A stretch of DNA of 50,846 nt, taken from positions 1 through 50,846 of the forward strand of contig CAYQUQ010000006.1 in assembly GCA_964420965.1 (NCBI GenBank). The letters run 5' to 3'. Under the pieces are notes generated by a model, which saw only the letters and a program-made list of their open reading frames with translations, did not search any database and was not told the DNA's origin. Below, piece after piece: positions 1 through 15,809 of this stretch; positions within the stretch are counted from its first letter, which is position 1, and each line of letters opens with the position of its first letter. This stretch comes from an uncultured Planctomycetia bacterium. Its GTDB lineage: Bacteria; Omnitrophota; Gorgyraeia; Duberdicusellales; 4484-171. Position numbers and translations under genes: made by a program.

Positions 1-1306
1 GTCCCAAAGCAATATCTACTACCTGGGGGTCATACTTTATACCCTTATCGCGCTCTAATTCCTGACAAGCTTCATCCAACCCCACTGCTGCCCGGTAGGG
101 ACGATGATGGGTCATGGCCTCCAAAACATCGCTTACGGCCAGAATGCGGGCTTCGGGAAGAATCTTCTCTCCCTTCAGGCGGCGGGGATAACCGGAGCCG
201 TCTAAACGCTCGTGGTGCTGGTAGATTATCTCCGCTAAAGGAAAGGGGAAATCAATCCCCTTGATCAGGTTGTAACAATTTCGGGCGTGCTCTCTAATCA
301 AACTGCTCTCTAAATCGCTTAATTTTCCGGGTTTATTTAAGATATCCAGAGGTATACTGATCTTACCGAGATCATGGAGCTCTCCGGCTAATTTTATCCC
401 CAGGAGACGCTCCTGGCCCCAGCCAAAAGCCCTGCCAATCTCCTCGGCGATGCTGGCCACATGGCGGGTGTGGCTAAAAGTATACGGGTCTCTCATCTCC
501 AGGGCCCGGCCTAAAACCTCAAGCGCATGGATCATCGTGGAAAGGCGCTGCTCTTCAAAGTTAGCGTGCGCGGTCATATCCCGGGTTATCCCCATGGTTC
601 CGATTACCTTTCCCTGGCCATTCCACATGGGGATCTTGGTAGTAATCACCTGATTTTTTCTCCCGTCGGGGAGGGTAGTTTTTTCAATCTTGCCGACGAT
701 AGACTTTCCGGTAGTTACCACATAATTGTCATCGTCAAACATCCTTTTCGCCTGCTCGTAGGGAAAAAAGTCAAAATCGGTCTTGCCGATAATTTCCTCC
801 TCCGGCCGGCCGGAACCTTCCAGGTAAAACTTATTCACCTTTATAATCCGGTTATTGCGGTCCTTAAAATAAACGGCATCGGGAATATTATCTAAAAGGC
901 TTTTTAAAAAGTCCCTCTCGATTAAAAACTGTTTTTGAATGTCTTTCTGGACGGAAATATCCTGGATGATTCCTTCCAGGGAAAGGGTGCCGTCGGTAGA
1001 AAATATACAAGAAACGGTGACGGCTACCCAGAGGGGCTGACCGTTTCTCTTCTTAAAGGTAGTCTCAAAAAGCCTGACTGTTTCGTTGCGGCGCAAAATG
1101 GCATTAAAAATCTTTCGATCCTTGGGGTTGAGAAAGAGACTGTCGATTTTTTCCTTGATAAAATCGCGGCGGGAACTATACCCCAGCATGCGGTAAAGGG
1201 CGGCGTTGGCCGACTGGAAACCCTCCTGAGGAAGAAGACTGTAGCGAAATAAACCGATCCCCAGATTATCGGCCCCGATAAGACTAAGCGAAAAACAATT
1301 ACTCAT
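1..1306 (-). CDS. PAS-PAS-HD-GYP c-di-GMP phosphodiesterase (3'-truncated by window edge; absent from ORF track)
   Basis: Hand translation from ATG 1306 (ATGA overlap with pilO stop) stays open to position 1. Two PAS/PAC segments (LDNIPDAVYFKD...GTMGITRDMT), then RDPYTFSHTRHV, ELHDLGKI and HHERLDGSGYP. Confidence 0.92.
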   Translation of the reverse strand, partial: MSNCFSLSLIGADNLGIGLFRYSLLPQEGFQSANAALYRMLGYSSRRDFIKEKIDSLFLNPKDRKIFNAILRRNETVRLFETTFKKRNGQPLWVAVTVSCIFSTDGTLSLEGIIQDISVQKDIQKQFLIERDFLKSLLDNIPDAVYFKDRNNRIIKVNKFYLEGSGRPEEEIIGKTDFDFFPYEQAKRMFDDDNYVVTTGKSIVGKIEKTTLPDGRKNQVITTKIPMWNGQGKVIGTMGITRDMTAHANFEEQRLSTMIHALEVLGRALEMRDPYTFSHTRHVASIAEEIGRAFGWGQERLLGIKLAGELHDLGKISIPLDILNKPGKLSDLESSLIREHARNCYNLIKGIDFPFPLAEIIYQHHERLDGSGYPRRLKGEKILPEARILAVSDVLEAMTHHRPYRAAVGLDEACQELERDKGIKYDPQVVDIALG

Positions 1307-1854
1307 TTCCCCTTTTCATTAGCCAGGGTAAAGGCATTAAAAACCATTTCCACTCTTACGAACGGGATTCTTTCCGATTTGCGCTGCACAGTCAAAGACT
1401 CAACCAGTATCAGCCTCTCGCTGGCCGACAACTTTTCCATAAACCCGACCAGGTCTTTGTATTCACAGAAAAATTCCGACTCAAAGGGAGCGGCTTTTAT
1501 CCCGGAAATATTGGCCAGCGCATCCGAGGGATTGTCCAGGGTTTTTACGCTCATGGTGCTGATGTTGGAAGCGGCGGCGATTTTCCTGGCTACATGGACC
1601 CCTTCAAAGTGCGATGTCCGTACCGCAGGTATCCGGCGTTCCAATTCATCTTCGGCAGCGCTTGTTTGTTTCTCATCGAAGCCTCTAATCGTAGACTCGG
1701 CGGTAACCATCTCTTTTTCCTTGTTCTTGTAGCTGGCCACTTCAGAGCTGACACCCGACGACATTTTGATCAGAATCACCAGGGCCGCAATCAAGACCAG
1801 GTCAGCGACGATAAGAATAACAACCAGTGTATTCTGGAACCAGTTTTTCTTCAT
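1303..1854 (-). CDS. pilO: PilO/GspM-like alignment protein
   Basis: N-terminal TM helix, coiled coil, C-terminal ferredoxin-like pattern (YKDLVGFMEKL...RLILVESL); follows pilMN. Confidence 0.75.
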   Translation of the reverse strand: MKKNWFQNTLVVILIVADLVLIAALVILIKMSSGVSSEVASYKNKEKEMVTAESTIRGFDEKQTSAAEDELERRIPAVRTSHFEGVHVARKIAAASNISTMSVKTLDNPSDALANISGIKAAPFESEFFCEYKDLVGFMEKLSASERLILVESLTVQRKSERIPFVRVEMVFNAFTLANEKGK

Positions 1855-3572
1855 TTCTCCCCACCCGTTATTTTTGCCGTTATGGTAAACTTACGCTCTT
1901 TAATCGGGGTCAAGTTTTCCCCGGAACCCCCCGAACTCAGCTTAAGGCTCTCTAACTTAAGGGGTGTAAATTCGGTATCCGCGAATAATCCCGAAGACTC
2001 CAGATTGTCACAGAAAATAGCCAGCTGCTTCTCAGACTCCTCGTAAGTGCCTACAATCGCTCCTTTCATTTTAAGCGAAATTCCCCCTTCACTGGTTTTA
2101 GACCCGCCGAAGGGCTCCTGGCTCCGGCTGCGCCCCTCGCCGCCGCCCATCATACCGCTCATGCCCCCCTCACTTTCACTACTGGACGATCCGCTTGCGG
2201 GAACAATCATCATCTCTTCCAAGAATATATTGGGCGGAGTCAGCTTACTAATGGCCACTAAAACTTCCTTCCAGGCCACGCCCATGGCATCGATCCTGGC
2301 GATTAAGGCCTGCTGACTTTCCAGTTGTGACTTTCGGGAATTAATGGCTGCGGCTTTACCGGTAAAATCCCGGTACTTTTCTTCCGAGAACCCGCCCTTT
2401 AACTTCCCCAGTGAAGCCTTGCCTACAAACAGCCGGGTTAAAAAAGTAAAAACGGCTATGCCCAGGATCAAGGTAACCACAAACAGACTATTCAAGGAAA
2501 CAAAGGTAATTTGCTTTTTCCGCTTTTCGACGACAACTTCCTGAGGCAAGAAGTTTAACCCCGGCCCTTTGCCGGCAGCCCCCAGGGCCACTCCGAAGGC
2601 GGTGAAAAACATGGGGCTGATAAGGGAAACCTGCTGGGGGGCAAGTTTGCCCACGGAAACATTTTTAAGCTTACTTAAATCAAAAAGGCCCAGTTCTCCG
2701 CTGATGTTTTTGGTCAGGAATTCAAAAACCGAAGGCACCTTGGCCGTACCTCCGCAGAAAGTAATCTGGTCAATCCGGTCCACCTTGGTAATTTCTTTAT
2801 GGTAGGCAAAAGAACGCCGGATCTCGGATAAAAGGTAACTCTGGCTCTCAAACAAATCTTTCTCGGTAATTTCCCCCCGGAAGAATAAATCCTCGGCTTT
2901 TTTCGCCGCCATACCTTCCTTCTTCGATATCGCGTCGATAAAATCACTCCCGCCGAAGGCAATCTGGCGCATCAGGGTCAACCGATCCTTAATAAAAATA
3001 GCCACAACCGTATTCTTAAACCCGATATCGATCAAAGCCATATTCTTGTCGGAGGGAGAAAAGCTCTCCAGGAATAAATTGATCAAGCTTACTTGGGATG
3101 CTCCGGCAAAAACCGGCTCGATTCTCTGGCTCCGGAAGAGGGAAAAGCGCTGGGAAACCTCTTCCTTGTTGGCGGAAGCGGTGAAAATGTTATAGGCTTC
3201 GGTGTCGGTCTGTACGGTGGAAAGGATGGCATACTTGACGATATCTTCGGCTGCCGGGACCGGTTTTATCCTCCGCCGGGCTTCGCGTAAAATCACCGGA
3301 TCCAGTTCCGACTTCGGCATCTTGGGTAAATCCAGGAGGCAGAAATTCAAGGCCGAAAAGGGGAGAGATATACCCACAGCCGCGCTCTTAACCTCTGCGG
3401 CCGAAACCTTCTCGAAAAGTCTTTCGAAAAATACTTTTCGGTCAATTACGCCGCTATTATCCGACGGAGTCTGAAAATACTCCAGAGTTAAAATCTCCAC
3501 CTTCTTCTGAGTGCCGATCTCTATCACTTTAGTCAAATCCGACCCGACATCAATACCGATTGCTTTTTTCAT
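1851..3572 (-). CDS. pilM: PilM-PilN fusion
   Basis: Actin-like PilM motifs GIDVGS, LIDIGFKNT, FGGSDF, CGGTAK; then PilN NFLP motif, TM helix and periplasmic domain (LSKLTPPNIFL-type segment). Confidence 0.85.
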   Translation of the reverse strand: MKKAIGIDVGSDLTKVIEIGTQKKVEILTLEYFQTPSDNSGVIDRKVFFERLFEKVSAAEVKSAAVGISLPFSALNFCLLDLPKMPKSELDPVILREARRRIKPVPAAEDIVKYAILSTVQTDTEAYNIFTASANKEEVSQRFSLFRSQRIEPVFAGASQVSLINLFLESFSPSDKNMALIDIGFKNTVVAIFIKDRLTLMRQIAFGGSDFIDAISKKEGMAAKKAEDLFFRGEITEKDLFESQSYLLSEIRRSFAYHKEITKVDRIDQITFCGGTAKVPSVFEFLTKNISGELGLFDLSKLKNVSVGKLAPQQVSLISPMFFTAFGVALGAAGKGPGLNFLPQEVVVEKRKKQITFVSLNSLFVVTLILGIAVFTFLTRLFVGKASLGKLKGGFSEEKYRDFTGKAAAINSRKSQLESQQALIARIDAMGVAWKEVLVAISKLTPPNIFLEEMMIVPASGSSSSESEGGMSGMMGGGEGRSRSQEPFGGSKTSEGGISLKMKGAIVGTYEESEKQLAIFCDNLESSGLFADTEFTPLKLESLKLSSGGSGENLTPIKERKFTITAKITGGEK

Positions 3573-3573
3573 A

Positions 3574-4773
3574 TCACCCGCCTACCATTTGCATCATCTT
3601 TATTAAAGGTAAGAATACCGCCAGGGCAATACCGCCCACCACTACCCCCATGATTACGATCAACAGCGGCTCTAAAATGGTAAAAATCTTACGGATGGTC
3701 CGGGGAACCTCTTTGTCGTAAAATTCACACAAGCGCTTAAACCCTTCGGATAAATTACCGGAGCGCTCCCCGACTTCAACCAGCCTTAACAGCAGCGGCG
3801 GGAATATGTTTTTATACCCGAACCCCATGGATAAAGTTCCGCCGGAAACCACCACCCGTTTGGTTTCGGAAACCACGAGCCCCAAATAAGCGTTACCGAT
3901 CAAATTTTCTCCTAAGGCTAAGCACTCTACAGCCGGTATGCCGCCGCCCAAACAGAGCGCCATCGAACGCGAAAACCGGGAAAGGCAGATTTTAAAAATT
4001 AATTGTCCCACTACCGGTAGGTTTATCTTAAGGGCGTCGAACTTAAGCCTTACCCCCGGGTTCTTCAATAGTAATTTTACCAGAAAAACCAGCAAAATGA
4101 TAGCCCCAATTACTAAATACCAGAATTTTCGGAAAGCGTAGCTGACCCCCATCACCATCTTAGTCATCAGCGGCAGATCCGCTCCGGCCTCTTCAAATAT
4201 GGGGATAAATTTAGGTAGCACAAATCCGACCAGAATGCATACCACGATAATCATAACCACGAAGATTATGATCGGATAAGCGGCTAACTCCGTTATTTTG
4301 GCTTTTAAATCCTGCTCCCACTCCAGATAGTTAGCGACCTCTTCCAAGACTTCGGTCAACTCTCCGGTCTTTTCTCCGCTGGAGACAATGGCCCGGTAAA
4401 GAAAAGAAAAGGTACGCGGATGCAATTCTAAAGCCTCCTGCAGCGAACCTCCGGCCTCGATGTACTCTTTTATGCTGTTAATCATCGAGTGCATCTCTTC
4501 ATCGGCCGCGTTATCTTCCGCCAATGACGACAAACTTCCCAAAAGGGAAAGCCCGCCTTTAAGCAGGGCGGCTAAATTGAACGTAAAAGCTAAAATCTTC
4601 TTGGCCTTGATCTTAACGTCTTTTTTCGTATGGGCGGTCTTGTGTTCGTAAGAAATCAATACTTGATTAATCGCATTGAGTTTATCCACTAATTCATTTT
4701 CATCGGTGGCAAAAATCGACCCGTCCACTTTCTTACCAAACCTGTCCCGCGCTACATACTTATATTTCGGCAT
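3574..4773 (-). CDS. pilC: PilC/GspF inner-membrane platform protein
   Basis: MPKYKYVARD start, two T2SSF domains (GEKTGEL, GERSGNL), AYP and LEP motifs. Confidence 0.93.
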   Translation of the reverse strand: MPKYKYVARDRFGKKVDGSIFATDENELVDKLNAINQVLISYEHKTAHTKKDVKIKAKKILAFTFNLAALLKGGLSLLGSLSSLAEDNAADEEMHSMINSIKEYIEAGGSLQEALELHPRTFSFLYRAIVSSGEKTGELTEVLEEVANYLEWEQDLKAKITELAAYPIIIFVVMIIVVCILVGFVLPKFIPIFEEAGADLPLMTKMVMGVSYAFRKFWYLVIGAIILLVFLVKLLLKNPGVRLKFDALKINLPVVGQLIFKICLSRFSRSMALCLGGGIPAVECLALGENLIGNAYLGLVVSETKRVVVSGGTLSMGFGYKNIFPPLLLRLVEVGERSGNLSEGFKRLCEFYDKEVPRTIRKIFTILEPLLIVIMGVVVGGIALAVFLPLIKMMQMVGG

Positions 4774-4877
4774 TTATCCCTCCTGCCATGATATTACCGC
4801 GGTAGCCCCGTCCGCATCCTGACCAGCACCGTTCCCCGGCGGTAATCCGGAAAGCCGGCAATACTTCCGTAATTTTC
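4774..4877 (-). pseudogene. Fused relic of a pilV-like internal fragment and a pilX-like C-terminus
   Basis: 4877-4827 encodes ENYGSIAGFPDYRRGTV (compare PilV EGYGSIADFPQYRRETV). 4830-4774 encodes GAGQDADGATAVISWQEG* (compare PilX GDGQDVDGEIAPVTWQMQ*). Confidence 0.75.
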
Positions 4878-4898
4878 GTTAATGGGATCAAGATAAAC

Positions 4899-6869
4899 TT
4901 ACTGCATCTGCCAAGTTACGGGAGCTATTTCTCCGTCAACATCCTGGCCGTCGCCGCCGCCACTGGAGCCACCCCGTTCATCATCGTCAGTCGCATCGGC
5001 ACACCCCGCATCATCGGGGAAATCAACCAGGCAATCTCCGTCATCATCAAGGTTATTACTGCATCTGGGTAAAGGATGGGAACATTTTAAGCGTTTGTTG
5101 CAACCCCCAACCGCATTGCCGGCGTTTGATCTTGAAATCCAAACTCCATTAACTGCATCGTACATAATAACATTTTCGTCAAAAGGATGGGAGTAACCAT
5201 GCCAGTACTTACAACAAAAATTAGCATACCCTAAGAGATTGCATGTACGTAATGATGTGGCATCATCATAGCCGGTACCTTTACCGAAAATAGCGTCAAA
5301 ATTGGGTATGTCCTGGCGCATCTCATCGACAACTGGTGTGGAACCATCAGCGGCTACCGCTCCATACATACTCCCGCCACAACTTCCTTTACTGCAACTG
5401 CCGCAGCTAGGGCAGCTGGGGCCGCCGCTGCCCGTACCCAGACAGCGCGTGGGGGGGATATCAATCTGATCCGCCTGTTCATCACAGCCTTCCAGGCCAT
5501 CAGGACCGGTACAAGTTTCATCGTGGGGGATTTCGCTCATATCTTCGGGCACGGCACAGCCATCATCACAGGTAGCGGCATTAGAGCCATCGGCCAGGCA
5601 AAAATCAATTCTCCCGTCGCCGTCGTTATCACTTCCGTCCGCACAGTCCACATCGGTAAAGGGGTCAATTTCTAAATCGAAAGTGCAGCCCCCGGTATTA
5701 TCATCCATCCGGCTGTCCGTAAAATAAGCGTTTAAACTGGCGGCACCGGCGGGAACAACTACATTTTGAAAACCTACAAATTCATAGACGCTTCCGATTC
5801 CGTTACCGGCGGCGTTAAAAAAACGCAGTAAGGGCGCGGACATCCCCCCGATAACCCCGGTGGCCGTGGCGCAAACTTCATTATCCCTTTCGCCGGGATC
5901 GCTGTAAATACCGGTAATATTAATTGCGCTCATGGTATCTCCGGGAGAAAAATCCCCGGCTACGGCCGCCACCATCCCCGGCATTCCCGGGGCGGCCGGG
6001 CCTTCATTGCCGTGCACACCGCAAACACCCCAGAGAGCATCTACATAAAGCCCGGGAAGGGTGGAAGGAGGAGGAGGAAGGGTACCGGTTTGTAACCAGT
6101 CAATCCCTCCGTCACCGTCATTATCGATACCATCATGGCATTCGTCGTCACAGGTAGGATCCGAACAGATTAAGTTATCCATCCAGTAAGGGCTGCTATT
6201 GCCATTAGCCATGTGCCAGGAAGATGAAGCTGTATTCCACCACCAAACCCAGTTATCACCCGGAGAACTCCACTGAGTTTGAGAATAGCCGTCCATGTTA
6301 TTATAACCGCCGAGCGTGCATACCCGCTGCGCAGTTACATCATCGCACCGGGTACTGTGGCCTTGATTGGGGTCGGGTATTCCGGCTCCGTCATCACGGG
6401 CCAAGTCGTAGATTTCCCAGTAACGAAATGTCCTGGTGTAAGCCGCACATGCGGCTTGGGGAGGGGCAGCCACAACACCATCAACCCGGATGGTAATTTC
6501 CCGGCGGGCAATCTCCTGAGCCGAAACCAGGTTGGTGCCGGCTAACACCCGGCCGATACCGGTAATATCCCGCTGGGTAGCCACTGCGCCCACATTAACC
6601 ACCGCAATTTCATAGACATAGAGAAAATGATCCCCGGCCAAGTCTAAATCAGTTTGATCCACCACTCCGGCATAATTAACGTCATTAATAACTTCGATTA
6701 TACCCCTTTCTGCTGCCGCCTGGGCCAGGTAGTAGGCGATAGAGGTATTGCGCTCATTGCTCTGGATTCGGGCTTCGTTTTTAAGGGAGCTGCCCAGGCT
6801 GGCCGCCAAGATTACCACTATTCCCATGAAAATCACTACCGATAAAACGATCTGGGTTTTTTTAGGCAT
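4899..6869 (-). CDS. PilX-like minor pilin fused to a large Cys/Asp-rich putative adhesin region
   Basis: Hydrophobic N-helix plus PilX motif AYYLAQAAAERGI; three C-x-[DN]-x2-D-x-DGD motifs; C-terminal pilin strand ending WQ. Confidence 0.75.
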   Translation of the reverse strand: MPKKTQIVLSVVIFMGIVVILAASLGSSLKNEARIQSNERNTSIAYYLAQAAAERGIIEVINDVNYAGVVDQTDLDLAGDHFLYVYEIAVVNVGAVATQRDITGIGRVLAGTNLVSAQEIARREITIRVDGVVAAPPQAACAAYTRTFRYWEIYDLARDDGAGIPDPNQGHSTRCDDVTAQRVCTLGGYNNMDGYSQTQWSSPGDNWVWWWNTASSSWHMANGNSSPYWMDNLICSDPTCDDECHDGIDNDGDGGIDWLQTGTLPPPPSTLPGLYVDALWGVCGVHGNEGPAAPGMPGMVAAVAGDFSPGDTMSAINITGIYSDPGERDNEVCATATGVIGGMSAPLLRFFNAAGNGIGSVYEFVGFQNVVVPAGAASLNAYFTDSRMDDNTGGCTFDLEIDPFTDVDCADGSDNDGDGRIDFCLADGSNAATCDDGCAVPEDMSEIPHDETCTGPDGLEGCDEQADQIDIPPTRCLGTGSGGPSCPSCGSCSKGSCGGSMYGAVAADGSTPVVDEMRQDIPNFDAIFGKGTGYDDATSLRTCNLLGYANFCCKYWHGYSHPFDENVIMYDAVNGVWISRSNAGNAVGGCNKRLKCSHPLPRCSNNLDDDGDCLVDFPDDAGCADATDDDERGGSSGGGDGQDVDGEIAPVTWQMQ

Positions 6870-8041
6870 CAGTTCCTCGTCCTCACTCCCGAACGCAAAT
6901 GATGGGTTCGGCCTCTTCTCTGGGTGGTTAATTCGATGGTTATAAAGGATGCACTCCCGGCATTGGATAAAGCCTGGATCTCGCCGGCGTCTAAGGGTCG
7001 ATTCCAGACTTTGACTTCGTCGATAAAGCCGCCCCAGAACCGGTTGTCTTCGTCGCCGTTTCTGCCGATAGAGGTCCCCCGATGGGGCGGATTATGGGGG
7101 TGGGTATAAACAATGTTGCCGGTAGCCGGGATTGAATTCTCTAAATTACCGTCAACGTAAAGCGAAGCCGTGCTACCGTCATAAGTAGCGGCCACATGGT
7201 GCCATTGGTCGTCGTTGTAATCCTGAGTTGAATCTACATTATAGCGTTGGGGAAAACCTCTGGTAAAGGCGAATCTTAAAATGCCGCTGCCGGCAGGAAC
7301 GTGAATGTCCGGCCCGACATCTCGGCACCGCTTATAAATAAACCGGGCGCCCCAGGCACCACTGAATGTCCCCGAGTATCTCACCCAGGCCGAAATAGTA
7401 ATGTTTACCGGAATTTCCAATAAGGGGGTAACCGGTAAATGAACATAGTCGCCGCTACCCGGCCCTCCGGTGCCGTGGCTGAAGCTTACTACGTTACCCT
7501 TTACCGGATCACTGACAATATGAGCCCCCCGCATAAATGTCCCGTTAATGCCGTTTTGAGGGTCATTGGCTGTGCCGTCGTCAAACAGCCAGCAGGCCAC
7601 CTCGTCCCCGGCGCAGGTTCCCGCGGCTCCGCCGGTGTCGATAGTAGCAAAAGCATTGCCGTTAGCGTTATCCACCACAAAGTCGGCTAACTCCTGGCGG
7701 GTAGCCACGGCCGTAGCCACATCCGGGCCTTGGCCGCGAAAAATACGGTCGTTGTTGGCTCCCCCGCGCCAATACCAGACCCGGACACCCCCGGTGAGCT
7801 CAAAGTGAAACCCGTCTACCCCGGCCGGGATATCGGCCTGGCTTAAGTTGGTGCCTTCCCGGGCTTCACTGATTATGGCTTCCAGAGCCCAGCGGCAATT
7901 CTGAATTACGTCTAAATCCATCCTCTGCCGTTCCCAGGAACGCTGGAGGGAGAAAAATAACCCTCCGGCGGCTACGGAGATAATGGCAAAAACGGCGATG
8001 ACTACCATCACCTCGATAAGGGTAAACCCTTTAAGCTTCAT
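6869..8041 (-). CDS. PilW-like minor pilin with LamG/concanavalin-like domain
   Basis: KG/FTLIEV prepilin motif; LamG motifs ITISAWV, WHHVAATYDG, LYVDG, GFIDEVKVWNRPL. Confidence 0.85.
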   Translation of the reverse strand: MKLKGFTLIEVMVVIAVFAIISVAAGGLFFSLQRSWERQRMDLDVIQNCRWALEAIISEAREGTNLSQADIPAGVDGFHFELTGGVRVWYWRGGANNDRIFRGQGPDVATAVATRQELADFVVDNANGNAFATIDTGGAAGTCAGDEVACWLFDDGTANDPQNGINGTFMRGAHIVSDPVKGNVVSFSHGTGGPGSGDYVHLPVTPLLEIPVNITISAWVRYSGTFSGAWGARFIYKRCRDVGPDIHVPAGSGILRFAFTRGFPQRYNVDSTQDYNDDQWHHVAATYDGSTASLYVDGNLENSIPATGNIVYTHPHNPPHRGTSIGRNGDEDNRFWGGFIDEVKVWNRPLDAGEIQALSNAGSASFITIELTTQRRGRTHHLRSGVRTRN

Positions 8042-8044
8042 AAA

Positions 8045-8446
8045 CTACCAGTTTCCTCGAAAGGTAGAGACAGTCCGGGATCCGGTCCGGGCCCCGATCT
8101 GCCAGAGTACGGTTATGTCAATTCTTCGTAATTCCAGCTGTCCGGCCGGGTGTCCGGTATGGGGATAGGTTAAGTGGGAAGTAACTACCGTCTCCCGGCG
8201 GTACTGGGGAAAATCGGCAATGCTCCCGTAGCCTTCGATAGTGGTAGCTACCGCTGGTAAAGCCGCGGGATAGCTTAGCTCTTCCATCCTTTCCCGGGCT
8301 AAACTTACGGCTACACTATCCACGCGGGAGCGGCCCAGGGCCATATAGCCCTGGCGAAAGATAACGGCGATGCCGTAAGAGACCAGCATCAGCACCATTA
8401 CCGCTACCGCCAGCTCAATAAGACTGAAAGTTCGTTTTAATCCCAT
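8045..8446 (-). CDS. PilV/GspI-like minor pilin
   Basis: KRT/FSLIEL motif, AVSLARERMEEL, RRIDITVLW. Confidence 0.8.
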   Translation of the reverse strand: MGLKRTFSLIELAVAVMVLMLVSYGIAVIFRQGYMALGRSRVDSVAVSLARERMEELSYPAALPAVATTIEGYGSIADFPQYRRETVVTSHLTYPHTGHPAGQLELRRIDITVLWQIGARTGSRTVSTFRGNW

Positions 8447-8874
8447 CGGATATAACCGGTCTGTCCGAATACGGTTACCTGCCGGGTTCTTCCTCTGTGG
8501 GTTAAGGTTATCACCAGATCCTGGGTGGTTCCGTAAAGGGCCTCAAAGGTAAGAGTGGTTAAAGCTGCCGGGTTTAAGGCCACCCCCCCGATATCCATCT
8601 GCTCGGTATCCAGCAAAGTGCCGGTGAGCGGGTCTCCCCGGTATACCTCGTACCGGAGGTTGACCGTATCGAAAGCGACAGTATGGTCGTGGTGCCGGGC
8701 CACAGCCAGATCCCGCACTGCGGCTAAATCGCTGGCCAGCTCCCGGGCCTGGGCATCGAGTTGCTTGGGGCTGAGGCTGGAAAAAGAAACCCCGATTACC
8801 CCGGTAAGCACCCCGATTATGGCTAACACCACCATAATCTCGATAAGGGTAAACCCCCTGCGCTTAAATAGCAT
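8437..8874 (-). CDS. FimT/FimU/GspH-like minor pilin
   Basis: RRG/FTLIEI motif, ARELASDL...RDLAV, C-terminal VTVFGQTG. Start moved to ATG 8874. Confidence 0.8.
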   Translation of the reverse strand: MLFKRRGFTLIEIMVVLAIIGVLTGVIGVSFSSLSPKQLDAQARELASDLAAVRDLAVARHHDHTVAFDTVNLRYEVYRGDPLTGTLLDTEQMDIGGVALNPAALTTLTFEALYGTTQDLVITLTHRGRTRQVTVFGQTGYIRWD

Positions 8875-8953
8875 TCTACCTTTGATAAAACCCCTCCTTG
8901 AAAGCACCCCGCACCCGGCATTGCCGGGTACAGGGATATTAATCTAATCGCAA

Positions 8954-9496
8954 TTAACGATGCAGGTAAACTATAATGTCATCCCGACCGGTATCAGCAT
9001 CGCCGGTATTTATACCGCAAATCAAATCTGCGCGGTTCCAACAAACTCTGTTTCCATCTGGCCCACGGCAAAGAAAGCTAGCGCAGGCGCCAGGGTGCCC
9101 AGGTTGACCCACAGGACATCTCCATTCATTAGGGTGTCCGTCATAATAGTAGTTTCTTCCCCAGGGATCCAGAGCTACGGCCTTCTGCAAATAAGGCCCT
9201 TGCCAGGTGTTAGCAGGGTAGCCATTATTGCAAAGCAAACCATAACGGCAGTCATTCAAGGCTGCGGAAGTAGTAGCATCACCCATCCATCCGCCGTCTC
9301 TTTCGCCGGGAGTTCTGCCGGTATCAGCCAGCAGAGAGAACATCGCCGTGGATGTGTTTTTGACTTCTGCTTGGGCCTTGGCAATCCGGGCCCTCTCCAC
9401 CATGTGCATGATCTGGGGCAGCATAATCGTGGCCAGAATCGCGATGATGGCCAAAACCACCATCAATTCGATTAAGGTAAACCCTTTTCTCACCAT
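8954..9496 (-). CDS. GspG-like pilin/pseudopilin, Cys-rich
   Basis: KG/FTLIELMVV motif, WQGPYL, DPWGRNY, DDI. Confidence 0.85.
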   Translation of the reverse strand: MVRKGFTLIELMVVLAIIAILATIMLPQIMHMVERARIAKAQAEVKNTSTAMFSLLADTGRTPGERDGGWMGDATTSAALNDCRYGLLCNNGYPANTWQGPYLQKAVALDPWGRNYYYDGHPNEWRCPVGQPGHPGACASFLCRGPDGNRVCWNRADLICGINTGDADTGRDDIIVYLHR

Positions 9497-9537
9497 TTTC
9501 CCTCCTTTCTGTAATCTTCTTGTTCTCCACTCTGTTT

Positions 9538-9681
9538 TTAAACTTCATCCGGCTGGACATCTTCTTCTACAGCCCTGTTGGCATTGGCCTTGATCACCTG
9601 GGTGACCACCAGCCCGATACAAAGAACAAAGATGAGAAAGGCTATAATTCCCACCATCTTGTTGTTCTTCCAGTTCGCCAT
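9538..9681 (-). CDS. 47-aa single-TM micro-protein (WKNNK family, copy 2)
   Basis: MANWKNNKMVGIIAFLIFVLCIGLVVTQVIKANANRAVEEDVQPDEV*. Preceded by SD AAGGAGGTG; paralog at 10368-10535. Confidence 0.8.
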   Translation of the reverse strand: MANWKNNKMVGIIAFLIFVLCIGLVVTQVIKANANRAVEEDVQPDEV

Positions 9682-9747
9682 CACTTCACCTCCTTAACTT
9701 TCCCGCTCAAGGCGGGGATCCCCAATCTTACTCTCCCCCCTATTAAC

Positions 9748-10326
9748 CTACTCCCGAATCAGAAAAATAGTCAACCAGTAGTTGTTCCCGAAATCTTCTA
9801 CCTGGCCGCGAGTCTGCCAACCACCCTCAACGCCGTCGATGATACCGTTTACCAGTTGTCGCACCCATTGACTCACCCCGCCGAACAGCGCTTGATTACC
9901 GTTGCCGGTAGTATCCACGGTACCATTCATGTCCAGGTCAAACCCGATTCCGCCGGCACCTGACGGCCAAACGCTTAAGCTGCGGTAAACCCCTAAAAAA
10001 TGGTTGCCAAAAGGGTTTTGGCCGGTGGTCAAGGGTGTCCGCAAATAAGGGCCATTCCAGGCAGTAGCGCCGCCGGGATTCATTGACAGCTGATGGTTAG
10101 CGGGTCCGGTATAACCCGGAGCAGCATACTCTAAACCGAATCCGCCCAGGTCATGACGGTACATCTCCCCGGCCGTGCGGAAAGTATCGGCTAAAGCCAC
10201 AATCTTGGCCGCCTTGGCTTTATCCATAGCCCGGGTAATCTGGGGAGTAATCATCACCCCCAGAATAGCGATGATGGCAATAACTACCATCAATTCAATC
10301 AAAGTAAAACCGCTTTTCATCTTCAT
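9748..10326 (-). CDS. GspG-like pilin/pseudopilin (candidate major subunit)
   Basis: SG/FTLIELMVV motif, WNGPYL, NPFG; strong SD AAGGAGG. Confidence 0.85.
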   Translation of the reverse strand: MKMKSGFTLIELMVVIAIIAILGVMITPQITRAMDKAKAAKIVALADTFRTAGEMYRHDLGGFGLEYAAPGYTGPANHQLSMNPGGATAWNGPYLRTPLTTGQNPFGNHFLGVYRSLSVWPSGAGGIGFDLDMNGTVDTTGNGNQALFGGVSQWVRQLVNGIIDGVEGGWQTRGQVEDFGNNYWLTIFLIRE

Positions 10327-10367
10327 CTTGCCTCCTTGGCTAACTACCCCCGATTTACTGGTTATTA

Positions 10368-10535
10368 TTATAGCGTAGCCTCATTCAATGCCCGCAGCTC
10401 TTGTTCTATCTTCTCCTTGTCTACGCGAGGGCCGCCCTGGCCCTTGGTCAACATGGTCACCATCAACCCGATGGCCACGATAACTACCAGTGCGGCTAAA
10501 ATTCCGATCATCTTGTTATTTTTCCAACCCGCCAT
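10368..10535 (-). CDS. 55-aa single-TM micro-protein (WKNNK family, copy 1)
   Basis: MAGWKNNKMIGILAALVVIVAIGLMVTMLTKGQGGPRVDKEKIEQELRALNEATL*. G-rich SD upstream; paralog at 9538-9681. Confidence 0.8.
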   Translation of the reverse strand: MAGWKNNKMIGILAALVVIVAIGLMVTMLTKGQGGPRVDKEKIEQELRALNEATL

Positions 10536-10579
10536 CTCTTAACCCCCTTACTAACTTTGACCTCTATTGTCCTGCTTCT

Positions 10580-12265
10580 TTAAGTAACCCGAAACACTTC
10601 ATCCACGGTAGTGATACCGGAAAAAAGCTTATTTAAAGCTTCATTACGCAAAACAGACATGCCTCCCTCGATGGCAATTTTGCGCATATTCTCGGCCGAC
10701 TCCTTGCGCAAAATAGCCGCCTGAAGCGTGGAGGAAGTACGCAAAAGCTCGTAAATCCCCAATCTCCCTTTATAGCCGGTATTACCGCAAATAGTGCACC
10801 CTTTTCCCCGGTAAAATTTTGCTCCCTCGGGTAGTTTCTCCTTTAACTTCAGAGAGGCGATTACCTCCGGAGTAGGGGTGTAAGCCTCCTTGCACTTGGA
10901 GCAGATTTTACGCACCAGGCGCTGGGCTAAAACCCCCAATAAAGACGAAGAGACTAAAAACGGCTCCACCCCCATATCGATCAAGCGGTTAAAAGCAGTA
11001 GGCGCATCATTGGTGTGCAGGGTGGAAAAAACCAGATGCCCGGTCAGCGCGGCCTGGATGGCAATCTCGGCGGTCTCTAAATCCCGGATTTCACCGACCA
11101 TGATGATATCCGGATCCTGCCGTAAAAAGCTGCGTAAAGTGCCAGAAAAATTAAGCCCGATTTTCGAGTGTACCTGCACCTGGCGCATCCCGTGAAACTG
11201 GTATTCCACCGGGTCCTCCACAGTCATGATGTTTACATCTTCTTTATTGAGCAGCTGCAGGGCCGAATAAAGGGTAGTGGTCTTTCCCGAACCGGTGGGC
11301 CCGGTGACCAGGATTATCCCGTAAGGCAGCTCAATCATTTCTTTAAACCGGGTTAAATCATTATCCGAAAACCCCAGCGATTTTAAACCGACCACCAGCC
11401 CGGATTTATCCAGCACCCTTAACACGATATTCTCGCCGTGCACGCTGGGACAGGTGGAAACGCGAAAATCGATCTCTTTGGCCTCGATCTTCATCCGCAG
11501 CCGGCCGTCTTGGGGCAGGCGCTTCTCGGATATATCCAAGGCCGATAAAATCTTGGTCCGGGAGATAATCGGGGCCTGGAGGAGTTTAGGGGCAACGTGG
11601 CGTTTATGCAAAACACCGTCAATGCGGTAGCGGATATTGACCACTTTTTCTTCGGGCTCGATATGGATATCCGAAGCTTTATCGTGGACGGCTTTACTGA
11701 TCATCAGGTTAACCAGCCGGATTACGTTGGCTTCCTGCTCCCGGTCCCCGGCTAAAAGCTTCTTATGGTCAATAGCCGAAAGCACCTCTTCCACTGTCCC
11801 CGAAGAACGGTAATGCTGTTCAATAGCCCAGGAAACATCGGCCTCACTGGCTAAAAGAGTCTTGACCTTACACCCACTGCGGTCGCGGATGTAATCAATA
11901 GCCACAATATCGTTAGGGTTGGGCGTAGCCAGGTAGAGGATATTTTCGGAGAGAAATAAAGGCACCACTTTGAATTCCCGGGCATCGTGCTCGTTGACCA
12001 GAGAAAGAACATCCTTTTCCACGATGTAATCCCCGAGATTAGCTACCTCGGTCTCCATCTGGGAAGCTAAGGCCAGATTTATCTGTTCCGACGCAGCCCA
12101 GCCGCGCTCGACCAGCAGGTCACCCAGGCGCTGGCCGGTAACTTTCTGCTCGGCTAAAGCCTGCCTGAGGACGCTTTCGGTAATTACGGATTCGGCAATT
12201 AAAAGCTCGCCTAACTTTTTTCGTACGGAAGGTCTGGATGTGTTTTTGGGGTCGCTCTCCGCCAT
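10580..12265 (-). CDS. pilB: PilB/GspE assembly ATPase with N-terminal MshEN domain
   Basis: Walker A GPTGSGKTT, LRQDPDIIMVGE, STLHTND, CxxC...CxxC. N-terminal KLGELL...LAEQ and RLGDLL...LASQ. Confidence 0.95.
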   Translation of the reverse strand: MAESDPKNTSRPSVRKKLGELLIAESVITESVLRQALAEQKVTGQRLGDLLVERGWAASEQINLALASQMETEVANLGDYIVEKDVLSLVNEHDAREFKVVPLFLSENILYLATPNPNDIVAIDYIRDRSGCKVKTLLASEADVSWAIEQHYRSSGTVEEVLSAIDHKKLLAGDREQEANVIRLVNLMISKAVHDKASDIHIEPEEKVVNIRYRIDGVLHKRHVAPKLLQAPIISRTKILSALDISEKRLPQDGRLRMKIEAKEIDFRVSTCPSVHGENIVLRVLDKSGLVVGLKSLGFSDNDLTRFKEMIELPYGIILVTGPTGSGKTTTLYSALQLLNKEDVNIMTVEDPVEYQFHGMRQVQVHSKIGLNFSGTLRSFLRQDPDIIMVGEIRDLETAEIAIQAALTGHLVFSTLHTNDAPTAFNRLIDMGVEPFLVSSSLLGVLAQRLVRKICSKCKEAYTPTPEVIASLKLKEKLPEGAKFYRGKGCTICGNTGYKGRLGIYELLRTSSTLQAAILRKESAENMRKIAIEGGMSVLRNEALNKLFSGITTVDEVFRVT

Positions 12266-12441
12266 TAATATCCTTTCGCTTATCCGCGTTCACGGACGGT
12301 TAGGATACACGCCTCTACCCACAATTAAACCATACCACATTCTAATTAATTTTTAAAGGGGAAATATCTAAATGGAAGCGCTTACAGAAACCCCGCCTCC
12401 CTCACCCTTTTTCCCTTTACTTTCAATATATTTTTTACTTA

Positions 12442-14466
12442 TTAGTTATAGGCGTCCAGGGCTCTCTCGATCTCTTCCTTCCTTTTCATCTCCCGATCGG
12501 TCCAGGAAGTACGCTCCCGTTGCAGTTGAACCTCCCGGGCTTCCTTCTCTTCTTCAATAAGCTTAGGGATTATTCTTAAGTAAGTGGCGCTGTTGGCATA
12601 CCCCGGGCTGATTCTCTCCACCTCACTAAAATAATCAAAGGCCTTAAGGTATTCCCCTTCTTTATACAGGGAGACGGCCTGGCGGTAAAGGGCATCAGCC
12701 TTGTCACTGACCTTATCGCGGGTTATTTTCTGCAATCTCTTTTCCTCTTGCTTGACCTCGCGCTGGAAAATTTTGTCTATTTTTCGCAGGTAATATTCGG
12801 TCTTTCCGTAACCCGGGCTTAAAGTCTGCAGCTGTTTGAATTTCTCCTCGGCCCGGGGATAATCTTTCTGCCCGTACAAGGTCAATGCTTCCTTATAAAG
12901 CTCTCGGACTTCTCGCTTTCTTGCGGTTTTGGCCTGCTTTTCGGCCTCAGCCTGTTGCCGAGTCTCTTCGGCAATCTGCTCCTGCTCTGCTCTCAGCTGC
13001 TCCTTTTCGGCCCGGAGCCTTTCTTGCTCGGCTTTTTTTTCCGCACTCTGCTCCTGTTTTTCCCGCTTTTTTCGCTCCTTTCGGATAAGCTTGGGCAGAA
13101 TTCTTAAGTAATAGTCAGTTTTGGCATAACCGGGACGCAATTCGTGAACCGCGTTAAATGTTTCATAAGCTTCCTCGTACCTTCTCTGCCGATAGAGGGA
13201 ACGGGCTGAACTGTAAAGCTGCTCGGCCTGCGCTAATCTCTCGGCCTCCTCTTCCTCTTCGGTAAGGCCCTTAAGCTCTTTTTCCAAAGCATCAGTGCGG
13301 GCTACTTCTTTAAGCGGTACCATCTTCAGCACTGACCTTCTTCCTTCCACCCGGGGCCTGATCCTTTCCTCGACTGCGGCGCTGTACTCAAATTCCGGCC
13401 GGGTGATAATGGTCGGTGAGACGAATATTACCAATTCGGTTTTTTCCGTTCGCGTCTTTGCGCTCTTGAACAGATAACCCAGATAAGGTATATCTCCTAA
13501 GAGGGGTATCTTTGATTCGCCATCGATAACCTTATTCTTGATCATTCCGCCGATAATCAAAGTCTCCCCGCTGGCCACGACTACTTTGGTCTGGGCCTGG
13601 CGGCTCTCGATAATCGGCACTGTATATTCTACCTCCTGATTATTGGCGGTAGTTAAAGTAATCTCGTAATCATCGGTTTTTTCGCTTACTTCCGGCTGAA
13701 GGAGCATGCTGATTTTCCCGTCCTCGTTTATGGTCGGGGTAGTTTTAAGAATAATCCCGGCCGGTTCAAAATTAACCTCCCAGCTGACTTCCGACCCGCC
13801 CTCGCTGGTGGAAACTGTCGGCTCAGCCCAGGGATAGACATCGGTCACCCTGATTTCGGCTTCCCGGTTATTAACCGTGGTAATGCTGGGAGCGGATAGA
13901 ATATCAGTATCATATTCATTGGCCAGAGCCTGCATAACTAAAGATATATTGTCATTAGCCACGGTAAGACTGAAAGGAGTCTCCGAGCCACTCGCGACCT
14001 GGTTAGGAGGATAGTAGGTGTTTTTATAAGAGGTAGCCTGGGTTATGCCCTGGCCGGCATTAGCCGAATAGACGTTAAACCCGCCCATGGTAAACCCGTT
14101 CTTATCGGCGAAAAGGGTCCAGTTTATCCCCAAAGCATTTTCGCCTTCCAGCTTAACCTCCACTATCCGGGCTTCGATGTGCACCTGCTGGGGCGGGACA
14201 TCGACCATACCCAGGTACTCTTCAACCCGCTTGATATTCTCCGGATAATCGATGACCAGGATGGAATTGGCTTCATCGCCGTAGAGAACCTCCCCCTGCT
14301 CGGAGAGAAGAGGATCGATAGCCGAAACGTTTCTGCCGGCGCCTCCGATCCCACCCGAATCCGAGCCCGCTCCGGAAAGAGCGCTGGCCGCCGACTCCAG
14401 GCCCTGGCTGAATCCGGAAAGCGCGAACGATAAACACAATATCAAGCTTAAAGCCTGCTTGACCAC
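12442..14466 (-). CDS. Secretin, C-terminal half (partial N domain + beta-barrel) with TPR-like/coiled-coil extension
   Basis: Own signal peptide. NSILVID...VDVPPQQVHIEARIVEV, ILSAPSITT, GETLIIGG, KIPLLGDIPYLGYLFKS, ELVIFVSPTII. Start may be ATT at 14496 or 14493. Confidence 0.9.
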   Translation of the reverse strand: MVKQALSLILCLSFALSGFSQGLESAASALSGAGSDSGGIGGAGRNVSAIDPLLSEQGEVLYGDEANSILVIDYPENIKRVEEYLGMVDVPPQQVHIEARIVEVKLEGENALGINWTLFADKNGFTMGGFNVYSANAGQGITQATSYKNTYYPPNQVASGSETPFSLTVANDNISLVMQALANEYDTDILSAPSITTVNNREAEIRVTDVYPWAEPTVSTSEGGSEVSWEVNFEPAGIILKTTPTINEDGKISMLLQPEVSEKTDDYEITLTTANNQEVEYTVPIIESRQAQTKVVVASGETLIIGGMIKNKVIDGESKIPLLGDIPYLGYLFKSAKTRTEKTELVIFVSPTIITRPEFEYSAAVEERIRPRVEGRRSVLKMVPLKEVARTDALEKELKGLTEEEEEAERLAQAEQLYSSARSLYRQRRYEEAYETFNAVHELRPGYAKTDYYLRILPKLIRKERKKREKQEQSAEKKAEQERLRAEKEQLRAEQEQIAEETRQQAEAEKQAKTARKREVRELYKEALTLYGQKDYPRAEEKFKQLQTLSPGYGKTEYYLRKIDKIFQREVKQEEKRLQKITRDKVSDKADALYRQAVSLYKEGEYLKAFDYFSEVERISPGYANSATYLRIIPKLIEEEKEAREVQLQRERTSWTDREMKRKEEIERALDAYN

Positions 14467-14535
14467 ACCCCGTTTAGGTTTATTTACCGTAATAATGGTC
14501 CACCTCCTGCTAATAGAACGTACTTCTACTTATCC

Positions 14536-15402
14536 TTATTCTCCGCCGCCGCCTCCGGAATCACCGCCGGAATCGCCGCCACCTTGGCCACCTACATCTA
14601 AACTATATTCTTCAGTCCTTACTTCACCTTCTTCTTCTACGCCCACCAGCTCTTTGGAGCTGATATACTTTAATTTAAAGACACGACTGGTGGTTTTGCG
14701 GTCCACAGCCTCGAGATAACTCTCGATATTCTTAACATTGGGAGGGTAATCGATGACCAACAGAGAATTAGGCAATTTTCCCAGGAATATCTTCCCCTCT
14801 TGGGAAAGAAGGTCATATATGGTATTCTCTCCGGAAACCCCTCCGCCCGAATCGCCTTCTCCGCCGGCTCCTCCGACTCCTTCGCCGCCTTCGCCGCCTT
14901 CGCCGGATTCACTTCCGCTGCTGCTGCGCGCCCCTTCCAGTAGCTCTTTAGCCTCTGCGGACCTTAAAACAAAGGTTTTAGCGATTAAATGCGGGAAAAC
15001 CCGGATGATATTCCCGTCCTTTTCCAGGGCCAGGTTATTATTCTTAAGGATTACCTTCAAGGCCTCTTCTAAAGAGATATTGGAAAAACTGGCGGTAACC
15101 TCACCTTTCACATCCTTATCCACCAGGATGTTTAAGCCGTAATCATGGGCAAATACCCGCAGGAGATCTCCGACTTCGACATCACGAAACTCCATGGAAA
15201 AACTGTCGCCGGCCTGCTGCTCCACCCGCATTAACGGCGGCTCCTGCTGGACAGCTGTTTCTCCGCCGCTGGGAGACTCAAACTCGCCCCCCCCGCCGGG
15301 AATTTCCCCGCCGGCAAAATCCTCGTCGGCTTGCGCAAAACATATTGGAGTAAACCAGAAACCCAACGCCATCAGCACAAAATAAATAACTACTTTTTTC
15401 AT
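14536..15402 (-). CDS. Secretin, N-terminal half (N0/STN + N domain + start of next N domain)
   Basis: Signal peptide; FSMEFRDVEVGDLLR...VDKDVKGEVT (N0); KTFVLRSAEA...NSLLVIDYP (N domain); ends SRVFKLKYISSKEL plus Gly/Glu tail. Confidence 0.85.
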   Translation of the reverse strand: MKKVVIYFVLMALGFWFTPICFAQADEDFAGGEIPGGGGEFESPSGGETAVQQEPPLMRVEQQAGDSFSMEFRDVEVGDLLRVFAHDYGLNILVDKDVKGEVTASFSNISLEEALKVILKNNNLALEKDGNIIRVFPHLIAKTFVLRSAEAKELLEGARSSSGSESGEGGEGGEGVGGAGGEGDSGGGVSGENTIYDLLSQEGKIFLGKLPNSLLVIDYPPNVKNIESYLEAVDRKTTSRVFKLKYISSKELVGVEEEGEVRTEEYSLDVGGQGGGDSGGDSGGGGGE

Positions 15403-15809
15403 TCTGTATCCCCCTCGAATAAGTCCGGCAAGTGCAAAATGACTTGCCCGCCCCTGTCCATTAATACTACCTGATCCCGCGTAATCGCGATAACCTGTCT
15501 GCTGCCGACGGTCTGGCCTTCGCTTAATACCTGCCCTCCGATTAAGGCTTTCTTGCCTTTATCGGATATAAAAATGGCGGTAAGATTTAAGCTTAAGCCC
15601 TCATCGTCTTCCTGGATAACCCCGGCCATCTTTAGCGCCGCTTCTTCTTCCACCTTTAAAAAAGGATTACGCAGCTCCTCACTATCCGAAACAGTATCGA
15701 TAGTATCGATAGTATCGATAGCCTCATCGATAGCCAATGCCGCCGGCATAAAAGTAAGGCTTAAACCTAAAGCCAGAGCTAAAACCTGAACCACTAAGTT
15801 AATTTTCAT
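15399..15809 (-). CDS. PilP/GspB-like periplasmic protein
   Basis: Signal peptide, RNPF, LNLTAIF...KALIGGQVLSEGQTVG; directly upstream of the secretin genes. Confidence 0.7.
   Translation of the reverse strand: MKINLVVQVLALALGLSLTFMPAALAIDEAIDTIDTIDTVSDSEELRNPFLKVEEEAALKMAGVIQEDDEGLSLNLTAIFISDKGKKALIGGQVLSEGQTVGSRQVIAITRDQVVLMDRGGQVILHLPDLFEGDTE
15693..15720. repeat. 9-bp in-frame tandem repeat (AGTATCGAT x3)
   Basis: Encodes IDTIDTIDT just after the signal peptide. Confidence 0.8.

Follow-up and report, generated by a model that had tools for sequence, protein, structure and literature searches.

Genes and features of the filament locus

The window analysed here is a stretch of 50,846 nucleotides from an Omnitrophota genome (G000; 1.56 Mb, 90% complete). 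Omnitrophota are uncultured and are thought to be host-attached or predatory, and their filament parts are little studied. The window carries a complete type IV filament locus with the gene order GspB/PilP-like, STN, secretin, PilB, two successive units of a small gene and a pilin gene, minor pilins (FimT/GspH-like and further ones), PilC, a PilM-N fusion and PilO-like (Table 1). As an earlier note on this DNA had described, the two small ORFs lie on the minus strand, encode 55 and 47 aa and share the residues that it named (43% identity), and each has an SD-like sequence and stands directly upstream of a GspG-like pilin gene; the gap from small-protein end to pilin start is 42 nt in both units. 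An in-frame GTG at 9684 would lengthen small protein 2 to 48 aa. The note took both ORFs to be unannotated, but gene callers have the 55-aa product (an identical database entry) and, for the second ORF, a 39-aa version that starts at its internal Met. Its duplicated unit stands as two units of small gene and pilin gene, but not as a recent duplication, because DNA similarity between them is limited to patches of 57, 78 and 24 nt and the two pilins fall into separate clades in a tree of 50 pilins (midpoint root).

Table 1 Features of the type IV filament locus in the window.
Feature	Position	Strand	Description
Whole type IV filament locus	1303..15809	(-)	Domain matches
FimT/GspH-like minor pilin, first downstream minor-pilin gene	8437..8874	(-)	Domain matches
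Candidate terminator or 3' stabiliser after pilin 2	8907..8935	(-)	13-bp hairpin, z -3.9
GspG/PilA-type pilin 2	8954..9496	(-)	180 aa; N_methyl match; T2SSG E 3.6e-8
Small single-TM protein 2	9538..9681	(-)	47 aa from ATG; family HMM E 5e-14
SD-like tract, small protein 2	9687..9695	(-)	AAGGAGGTG; sequence
GspG/PilA-type pilin 1	9748..10326	(-)	192 aa; N-methyl motif; T2SSG E only 0.14
Small single-TM protein 1	10368..10535	(-)	55 aa, ATG start; family motif W-K-N-N-K-M-I-G; family HMM E 5e-12
SD-like tract, small protein 1	10543..10549	(-)	AAGGGGG; sequence
PilB/GspE extension ATPase, immediately upstream of small protein 1	10580..12265	(-)	T2SSE E 2e-138, MshEN

None of 200 shuffled sequences was as stable as the hairpin behind pilin 2. 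Scans for sigma-70 promoters and terminators stayed at shuffle level, no significant 5' hairpin was found before small protein 2 (z 0.63), and no small ORF precedes the FimT/GspH-like gene. A candidate sigma-54 promoter before unit 2 was dropped, because no rpoN domain was found in the 90% complete genome.

Other genes of the window have features of their own. The protein at the PilX position (4899-6869, 656 aa) is Cys-rich, carries D-x-D-G-D repeats and has no Pfam match, and it and its relatives have Gln before the hydrophobic segment where prepilins carry Gly. The adjacent PilW-like minor pilin (6869-8041) ends in a LamG/concanavalin domain (E 2e-29) and is a candidate adhesin. The secretin is encoded by two genes (12442-15402), one for the STN/N domains (14536-15402) and one for the secretin proper (12442-14466), the latter with a C-terminal TPR extension, and this split is also kept in relatives. 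A serine recombinase at the contig end (49302-50648), with a similar fragment on contig C55, may mark an integrated element.

A family of small membrane proteins

The two window ORFs are genuine and belong to an unnamed family of small membrane proteins, in which the consensus MAxW[KR]xNKxVGIxAG is followed by one transmembrane helix or hydrophobic run and a variable tail. A word-index protein search with both window peptides returned only the peptides themselves, and the relatives emerged by HMMER, with 88 clusters (50% identity) among 1.84 billion representatives at E≤0.001 and with the match at the N-terminus. The family profile was built from 87 of these 88 members, leaving aside one N-truncated call. 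Most are short (73 of at most 75 aa, 5 of 76-99 aa and 9 of at least 100 aa). Across the 87, K8 is kept in 79, V10 in 73, G11 in 82, A14 in 79 and G or A at position 15 in 76; W4 is invariant in 73 aligned members and N7 present in 83/85, and the tails, 15-30 aa long, are unalignable. The motif shared by the two window peptides is real, as had been proposed, but its WKNNK, IGL, VT and closing K are variants of G000 and not features of the family.

Searched with the family HMM, the 7381 ORFs of G000 gave five matches at E≤5e-12, and the best of the others reached only E 0.078. The three copies outside the window (contigs C10, C43 and C55) were found by tblastn and a motif scan; these copies, the long putative zinc-ribbon forms and the GspB/PilP-like fusion described below go beyond the earlier note. 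The distribution of the family is patchy. It is present in 7/85 genomes at the order level; 8/401 gave hits at the phylum level, among which inspection confirmed G000, G443 and G110, and 11/401 at the class level, of which 7 were real, as were 2/3 metagenome loci. Inspection covered the hits other than G437, G255, G359 and seven weaker loci, and the false positives were L069, G184, G254, G045, G601, G162, G295, G097, G038, G031 C42 and G037 C5.

The earlier note knew of no filament subunit with this motif, and the searches agree: Pfam and NCBIfam gave no family at cut-off and only generic transmembrane matches below it, the PDB sequence search gave transmembrane helices only (E≥0.026) and no relative, and the best ESM Atlas score with a window peptide, 0.83, is a lead only. 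We found no description of the family in the literature searched, which lay outside supplements and the main Omnitrophota genome surveys, where a passing mention is possible. Its members are often mis-called or left unnamed by annotation. The family is real and adds to a known kind of protein, the pilin accessory membrane proteins. As a side observation, L032 4788-5057 and P0039 represent a subfamily of 89-96 aa with a different, Cys-free C-terminal extension.

Selection and expression

Codon comparisons indicate that the N-terminus of the family is under purifying selection at the protein level. Among 23 members, codons 2-15 gave pS 0.81, pN 0.24 and pN/pS 0.30 (uncorrected and near saturation) and codons 16-30 gave pN/pS 0.75; identity by codon position was 0.55/0.73/0.33, and four close pairs had pN of 0.16-0.32 against pS of 0.39-0.90.

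The stretch 8891-9793, with small protein 2 and pilin 2, is covered by RNA-library contigs in 4/4 metatranscriptome runs from one study, and a single contig of 869 nt spans both genes. Over 20 kb, 8/19 RNA pieces fell on this stretch and came from all four runs, the other 11 being scattered and 151-295 nt long. This coverage is supportive only, because the runs were found by a query containing the stretch, the contigs carry neither strand nor level, and the libraries may contain DNA. In two runs the contigs end at 8891 and 8914, near the 13-bp hairpin. Unit 1 (9794-10700) had no RNA contig in the four runs, a gap that carries no inference. At 9129, 9179 and 9182 in pilin 2, one RNA contig departs from the window sequence; one of these differences changes residue 123 and two are silent, which is strain variation.

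Linkage to pilin genes

All five G000 copies lie directly upstream of a GspG/PilA-type pilin gene; as only 0.32% of strand positions are within 420 nt upstream of any of the 24 prepilin motifs of this genome, such linkage is not due to chance. The pattern extends to other genomes in a context set of 31 motif-picked members from 15 genomes and 2 metagenome contigs, where 28 precede a pilin, 26 with a pilin motif at most 420 nt downstream by script (one FimT-like) and two more by inspection (an overlapping start and an N-masked pilin). One further member lies after two pilins and before an ABC ATPase, and two have no pilin neighbour. An SD-like tract precedes 29/31, by a permissive pattern applied without a shuffle control. 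The divergent members in G037, G072 and G041, found by neighbourhood or weak match and excluded from the 31, all precede a pilin. The earlier note had named three outcomes that would count against it, namely no conserved homologs next to pilins, no purifying selection, or a match to a known family unrelated to pili; its proposed HMM search and selection test yielded homologs beside pilins and a constrained N-terminus, and no named family was matched at cut-off.

The pair of small gene and pilin gene also stands alone, as a cassette surrounded by housekeeping genes, on G000 C10 and C43, on G443 C47 and in G041, and G443, with ten copies, has six of them in a single array alternating with pilins on contig C12. 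An unrelated gene for a membrane protein of 389 aa (L071 2758-3927) breaks that array.

The claim that each pilin is preceded by its own small protein is true of both GspG-like pilins in the window. It fails for four pilins of similar type elsewhere in the genome (C11, C19, C25 and C61), which have no family member within 700 nt. Close pilin paralogs with and without a partner coexist in G000 (154/181 identical residues and 131/170 columns, 77-85%), so an obligatory one-to-one relation is not supported. Many relatives have the same pilB-pilin-ABC locus without the small ORF, with pilB running straight into the pilins in G001, G004, G008, G009, G071 and others, and the small gene is therefore optional. 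In the clade of window pilin 1, a small or long partner lies upstream in 9/9 rows, with the long-form rows near the base (98/86).

Several side observations concern the surroundings of these pilin genes. G000 has six PilB/GspE-type ATPases (C6, C3 twice, C24, C38 and C18) and its 24 prepilin motifs, consistent with several type IV filament systems. An inverted repeat, GGGACAGACCCC ... GGGGTCTGTCCC, recurs near several stand-alone pilin genes (G000 C19, C25 and C43), on C43 close to a REP-type transposase-like gene. Four-helix-bundle genes, which we take to belong to an intervening-sequence-like family, sit among minor pilin genes with flanking AT-rich repeats (G000 C3 near 53540-53930; L099 8433-8813).

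Long forms and a fusion

Some long members carry a Cys/His-knuckle domain behind the motif (G443, 148 aa; G483, 128 aa; G069, 115 aa; G037, 105 aa; G524, 101 aa). The knuckles, together with a model of the G069 form that has one helix (residues 3-29) and a beta domain (pLDDT 77), suggest a putative zinc-ribbon. Fold searches with the long-form model gave nothing significant (best Foldseek E 0.24), the best structural Z of 3.8, to MCM zinc domains, is a weak zinc-domain likeness, and the 8-Cys form matched the FmdB-type ribbon TIGR02605 at E 1.6e-4, below cut-off. One 8-Cys long form has no pilin within 20 kb. One long-form match carries the name Omnitrophica WOR_2, and an HMM of the long forms returned no new long member from 401 phylum genomes. 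Forms of 104-117 aa in which the Cys are partly lost also occur (P0032, P0040 and P0060).

The long forms of G037, G069 and G524 occupy the slot between pilB and pilin, the place of window protein 1, which makes it likely that the small proteins are truncated forms that lost the zinc-ribbon-like domain and kept the N-terminal motif. In G004 the motif forms the N-terminus of a GspB/PilP-like protein in a pilus locus (E 2e-9). Five other genomes of that genus lack the motif there, so the fusion is probably a late event.

What the motif follows, and alternative readings

By comparing small proteins and pilins across genomes, we found that the shared motif follows the genome and not the neighbouring pilin, contrary to the pilin specificity proposed earlier. 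Likeness over residues 2-15 averaged 0.72 within genomes against 0.59 between genomes (permutation p=0.0002), pilins of the same genome are not more alike than others, and Mantel tests showed no correlation of residues 2-15 with the adjacent pilin (r -0.02 and 0.01). Weak correlations with the pilin body were seen for the transmembrane part (r 0.13, p 0.034) and the tail (r 0.17, p 0.025), and these vanished when pilins were shuffled within genomes (p 0.11 and 0.12). A motif that tracks the genome fits a partner common to all copies, perhaps the nearly invariant pilin alpha1N, or within-lineage copying of the small gene; recent copying or gene conversion of that gene could produce the same likeness without a shared partner.

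These results bear most directly on the reading in which each small protein binds and stabilises only the pilin beside it. A parallel is Geobacter PilA-C/Spc (GSU1497), a small gene paired with a pilin in a locus that has an Xap/PilGHI-type ABC trio. There, PilA-C provides a short pilin with the globular head that it lacks, whereas the pilins studied here have their full length and are accompanied by a transmembrane peptide encoded upstream. The cassette arrangement, an overlapping stop and start in G041 and the single RNA contig across small protein 2 and pilin 2 agree with such pairing, as do the weak correlations above and the clustering of partner presence on the pilin tree (9 changes versus 16.9 when shuffled). 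Several related small proteins also remain beside related pilins, including where the two genes have changed order: the G443 copy at C12:6364 lies after, and the one on C11 before, a homologous pilin, and likewise the G443 copy on C55 lies after and the G062 copy before related pilins. Such retention keeps the reading alive. However, the conserved motif shows no correlation with the pilin, the tails are too variable to align, and strict one-to-one chaperoning is unsupported because the motif tracks the genome and pilin paralogs occur with and without a partner. We regard a cognate chaperone as unlikely.

A second reading takes the small proteins as mini-pilins without Glu5, cut by prepilin peptidase after Gly11 to give a product of 35-45 aa that would enter or cap the filament. 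The earlier note had stated that a class III signal is lacking, and this holds for the canonical F+1 and E+5 but not for a looser definition. As described in passages of PMC10191384, such a signal is a hydrophilic leader ending in Gly or Ala followed by 20-25 hydrophobic residues, with Glu5 frequent, not invariant, and the family fits it, with G or A at position 11 in 85/87 members, followed by an uncharged segment whose median length, counted from K8 onwards, is 22 residues. Each small gene also has its own SD and lies beside a likely major pilin. Yet position -2 is V, I, L or M in 87/87 members, against K or R in 65/98 canonical prepilins of the same loci; the canonical N-methyl motif (PF07963) had no match in family members; G11 is replaced by Leu in the G524 long form; and W4, N7 and K8, which are conserved most of all, fall within the would-be leader, an unusual feature in a discarded peptide. 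PilFind-like and FlaFind-like patterns matched 1/87 and 2/87. A mini-pilin is therefore unlikely. No member has a lipobox Cys (0/87).

In a third reading the small proteins would be partners or substrates of a PilGHI/Xap-type ABC exporter (ATPase, permease and TPR membrane protein) that accompanies these pilins; by gene order and domain matches the trio resembles PilGHI as outlined in PMC6060248. The trio adjoins many cassettes (G000 C55, G028, G443, G110, G062, G069 and four f48 genomes), one member is placed between pilins and the ABC ATPase, and the TPR gene occurs in 6/8 motif genomes versus 12/77 others (Fisher p 0.0009), a comparison in which kin genomes are not independent and the TPR query alignment was drawn from motif genomes. 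Against this, those 12 genomes carry the TPR gene but give no motif match, G019 and G033 (77% complete) carry the small gene but no TPR gene, and the window locus has no trio. The trio probably marks a type of locus, and an exporter partnership is quite improbable. Very improbable is a regulatory uORF that couples translation of the pilin mRNA or targets it to the membrane, the peptide being secondary: the small genes are nearly always 5' of a pilin with short gaps and strong SD tracts, but selection acts on their amino acids, the long forms have a putative folded domain, some members lie 3' of a pilin, and the pilins have their own SD.

Comparison with known assembly factors

The closest parallels in working are single-pass or accessory membrane proteins of type II secretion and type IV pili, and the small proteins belong to neither family compared here. 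According to the account in 10.1101/2022.07.16.500195, PulM (GspM) of the T2SS is a single-pass inner-membrane protein that interacts with the major pilin PulG through transmembrane parts and hands it over to the platform. Unlike PulM, the small proteins have neither a periplasmic ferredoxin-like domain nor a Pfam or NCBIfam match at cut-off (no T2SSM/PilO match at E≤0.01 among 73 members), several copies occur, each beside a pilin, and the locus has a separate PilO/GspM-like gene.

The TfpY gene lies downstream of pilA. In the description given in PMC11841053, TfpY, TfpZ and FimB of Pseudomonas and relatives are membrane proteins encoded beside the major pilin, strain-optional and not strictly cognate, and TfpY aids assembly, cross-complements and is absent from the fibre. 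TfpY-like proteins there have 170-245 aa, three transmembrane helices and a globular C-terminal domain, in contrast to the 46-77 aa and one hydrophobic run or helix of the small proteins.

Amuc_1100, a pilus cluster protein of the PVC superphylum according to 10.64898/2025.12.30.696933, provides a weak lead. Its family (NF038287, PilO/PilN-like) matched 5/73 members at E≤0.01, in register and within its first 28-53 positions, with 12-20 bits against a cut-off of 180, and in 4/4 cases the match was lost when residues 1-8 were removed. The match thus depends on the motif. An unrelated membrane family was matched by 10/73 members, as often or more, the small proteins have no periplasmic domain, and the motif is absent from 15 Omnitrophota Amuc_1100-like loci. 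Amuc_1100-like genes occur in 18/251 Omnitrophota genomes, after a PilM-like gene (L163-L177). Unnamed clusters of hypothetical proteins with a transmembrane part and a zinc-ribbon from Planctomycetota and Lentisphaerota in the ESM Atlas resemble the 148-aa long form (0.92 by features, TM 0.50 by structure), a domain that the small forms lack.

A proposed role as pilin escorts

The genes are real, their N-terminal motif and hydrophobic helix are conserved, their linkage to pilins is tight, and Cys-rich long relatives lie in the same slot. By analogy with the factors above, we propose that the small proteins are uncleaved, N-in, single-pass and non-essential escorts that act via a partner common to all pilins, a reading to which we give a probability of about one half. 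The small protein, encoded first in its cassette and co-expressed with the pilin, would keep that pilin in the inner membrane and then deliver it to the assembly platform. With a cytoplasmic, uncleaved N-terminus, W4, N7 and K8 at the membrane surface and the small-residue patch G11-x-x-A14-G15 would pack against a partner identical for all copies in a cell. This partner would be either alpha1N of the pilins or a component of the platform, for example PilC or PilO, and the variable tail would be a remnant or a fine-tuner. The G004 fusion and the weak Amuc_1100 matches, taken as Rosetta-type hints, point to a link with the assembly machinery. Net charge averaged +1.3 before the helix and +1.9 after it and does not settle the topology, conservation on one helix face was not significant (p=0.09), and when small protein 1 and pilin 1, each given as an alignment, were modelled as a complex, the score was 0.01, which speaks neither for nor against contact.

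How pilins are selected from the membrane pool and handed over to the platform is an open question, and cells with many paralogs must choose. A factor of 50 residues with a single helix, tied to pilin genes, would be the smallest testable handle on the hand-over step, and even if the small proteins are only an optional accessory, they make a modest but real addition to the accessory proteins of pilins. More speculatively, and in our view tentative and on the improbable side, pilin selection in Omnitrophota might be modular: many interchangeable pilin genes, in arrays or scattered, might each carry a detached 50-residue anchor that admits the pilin to one shared machine, or co-assembles with it. 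The anchor would be a stripped PilO/Amuc_1100-like or zinc-ribbon assembly factor, and filament type would be switched cassette by cassette; if true, type IV filament assembly would gain a new and minimal component.

Several points count against the escort proposal: the family is patchy, many relatives do without the small gene, the window's PilO-like protein lacks the motif (homology to its N-terminus was considered and rejected, E 2.4), and in G097 a similar stretch, NKxxGIxAG, occurs in an FtsB-like protein.
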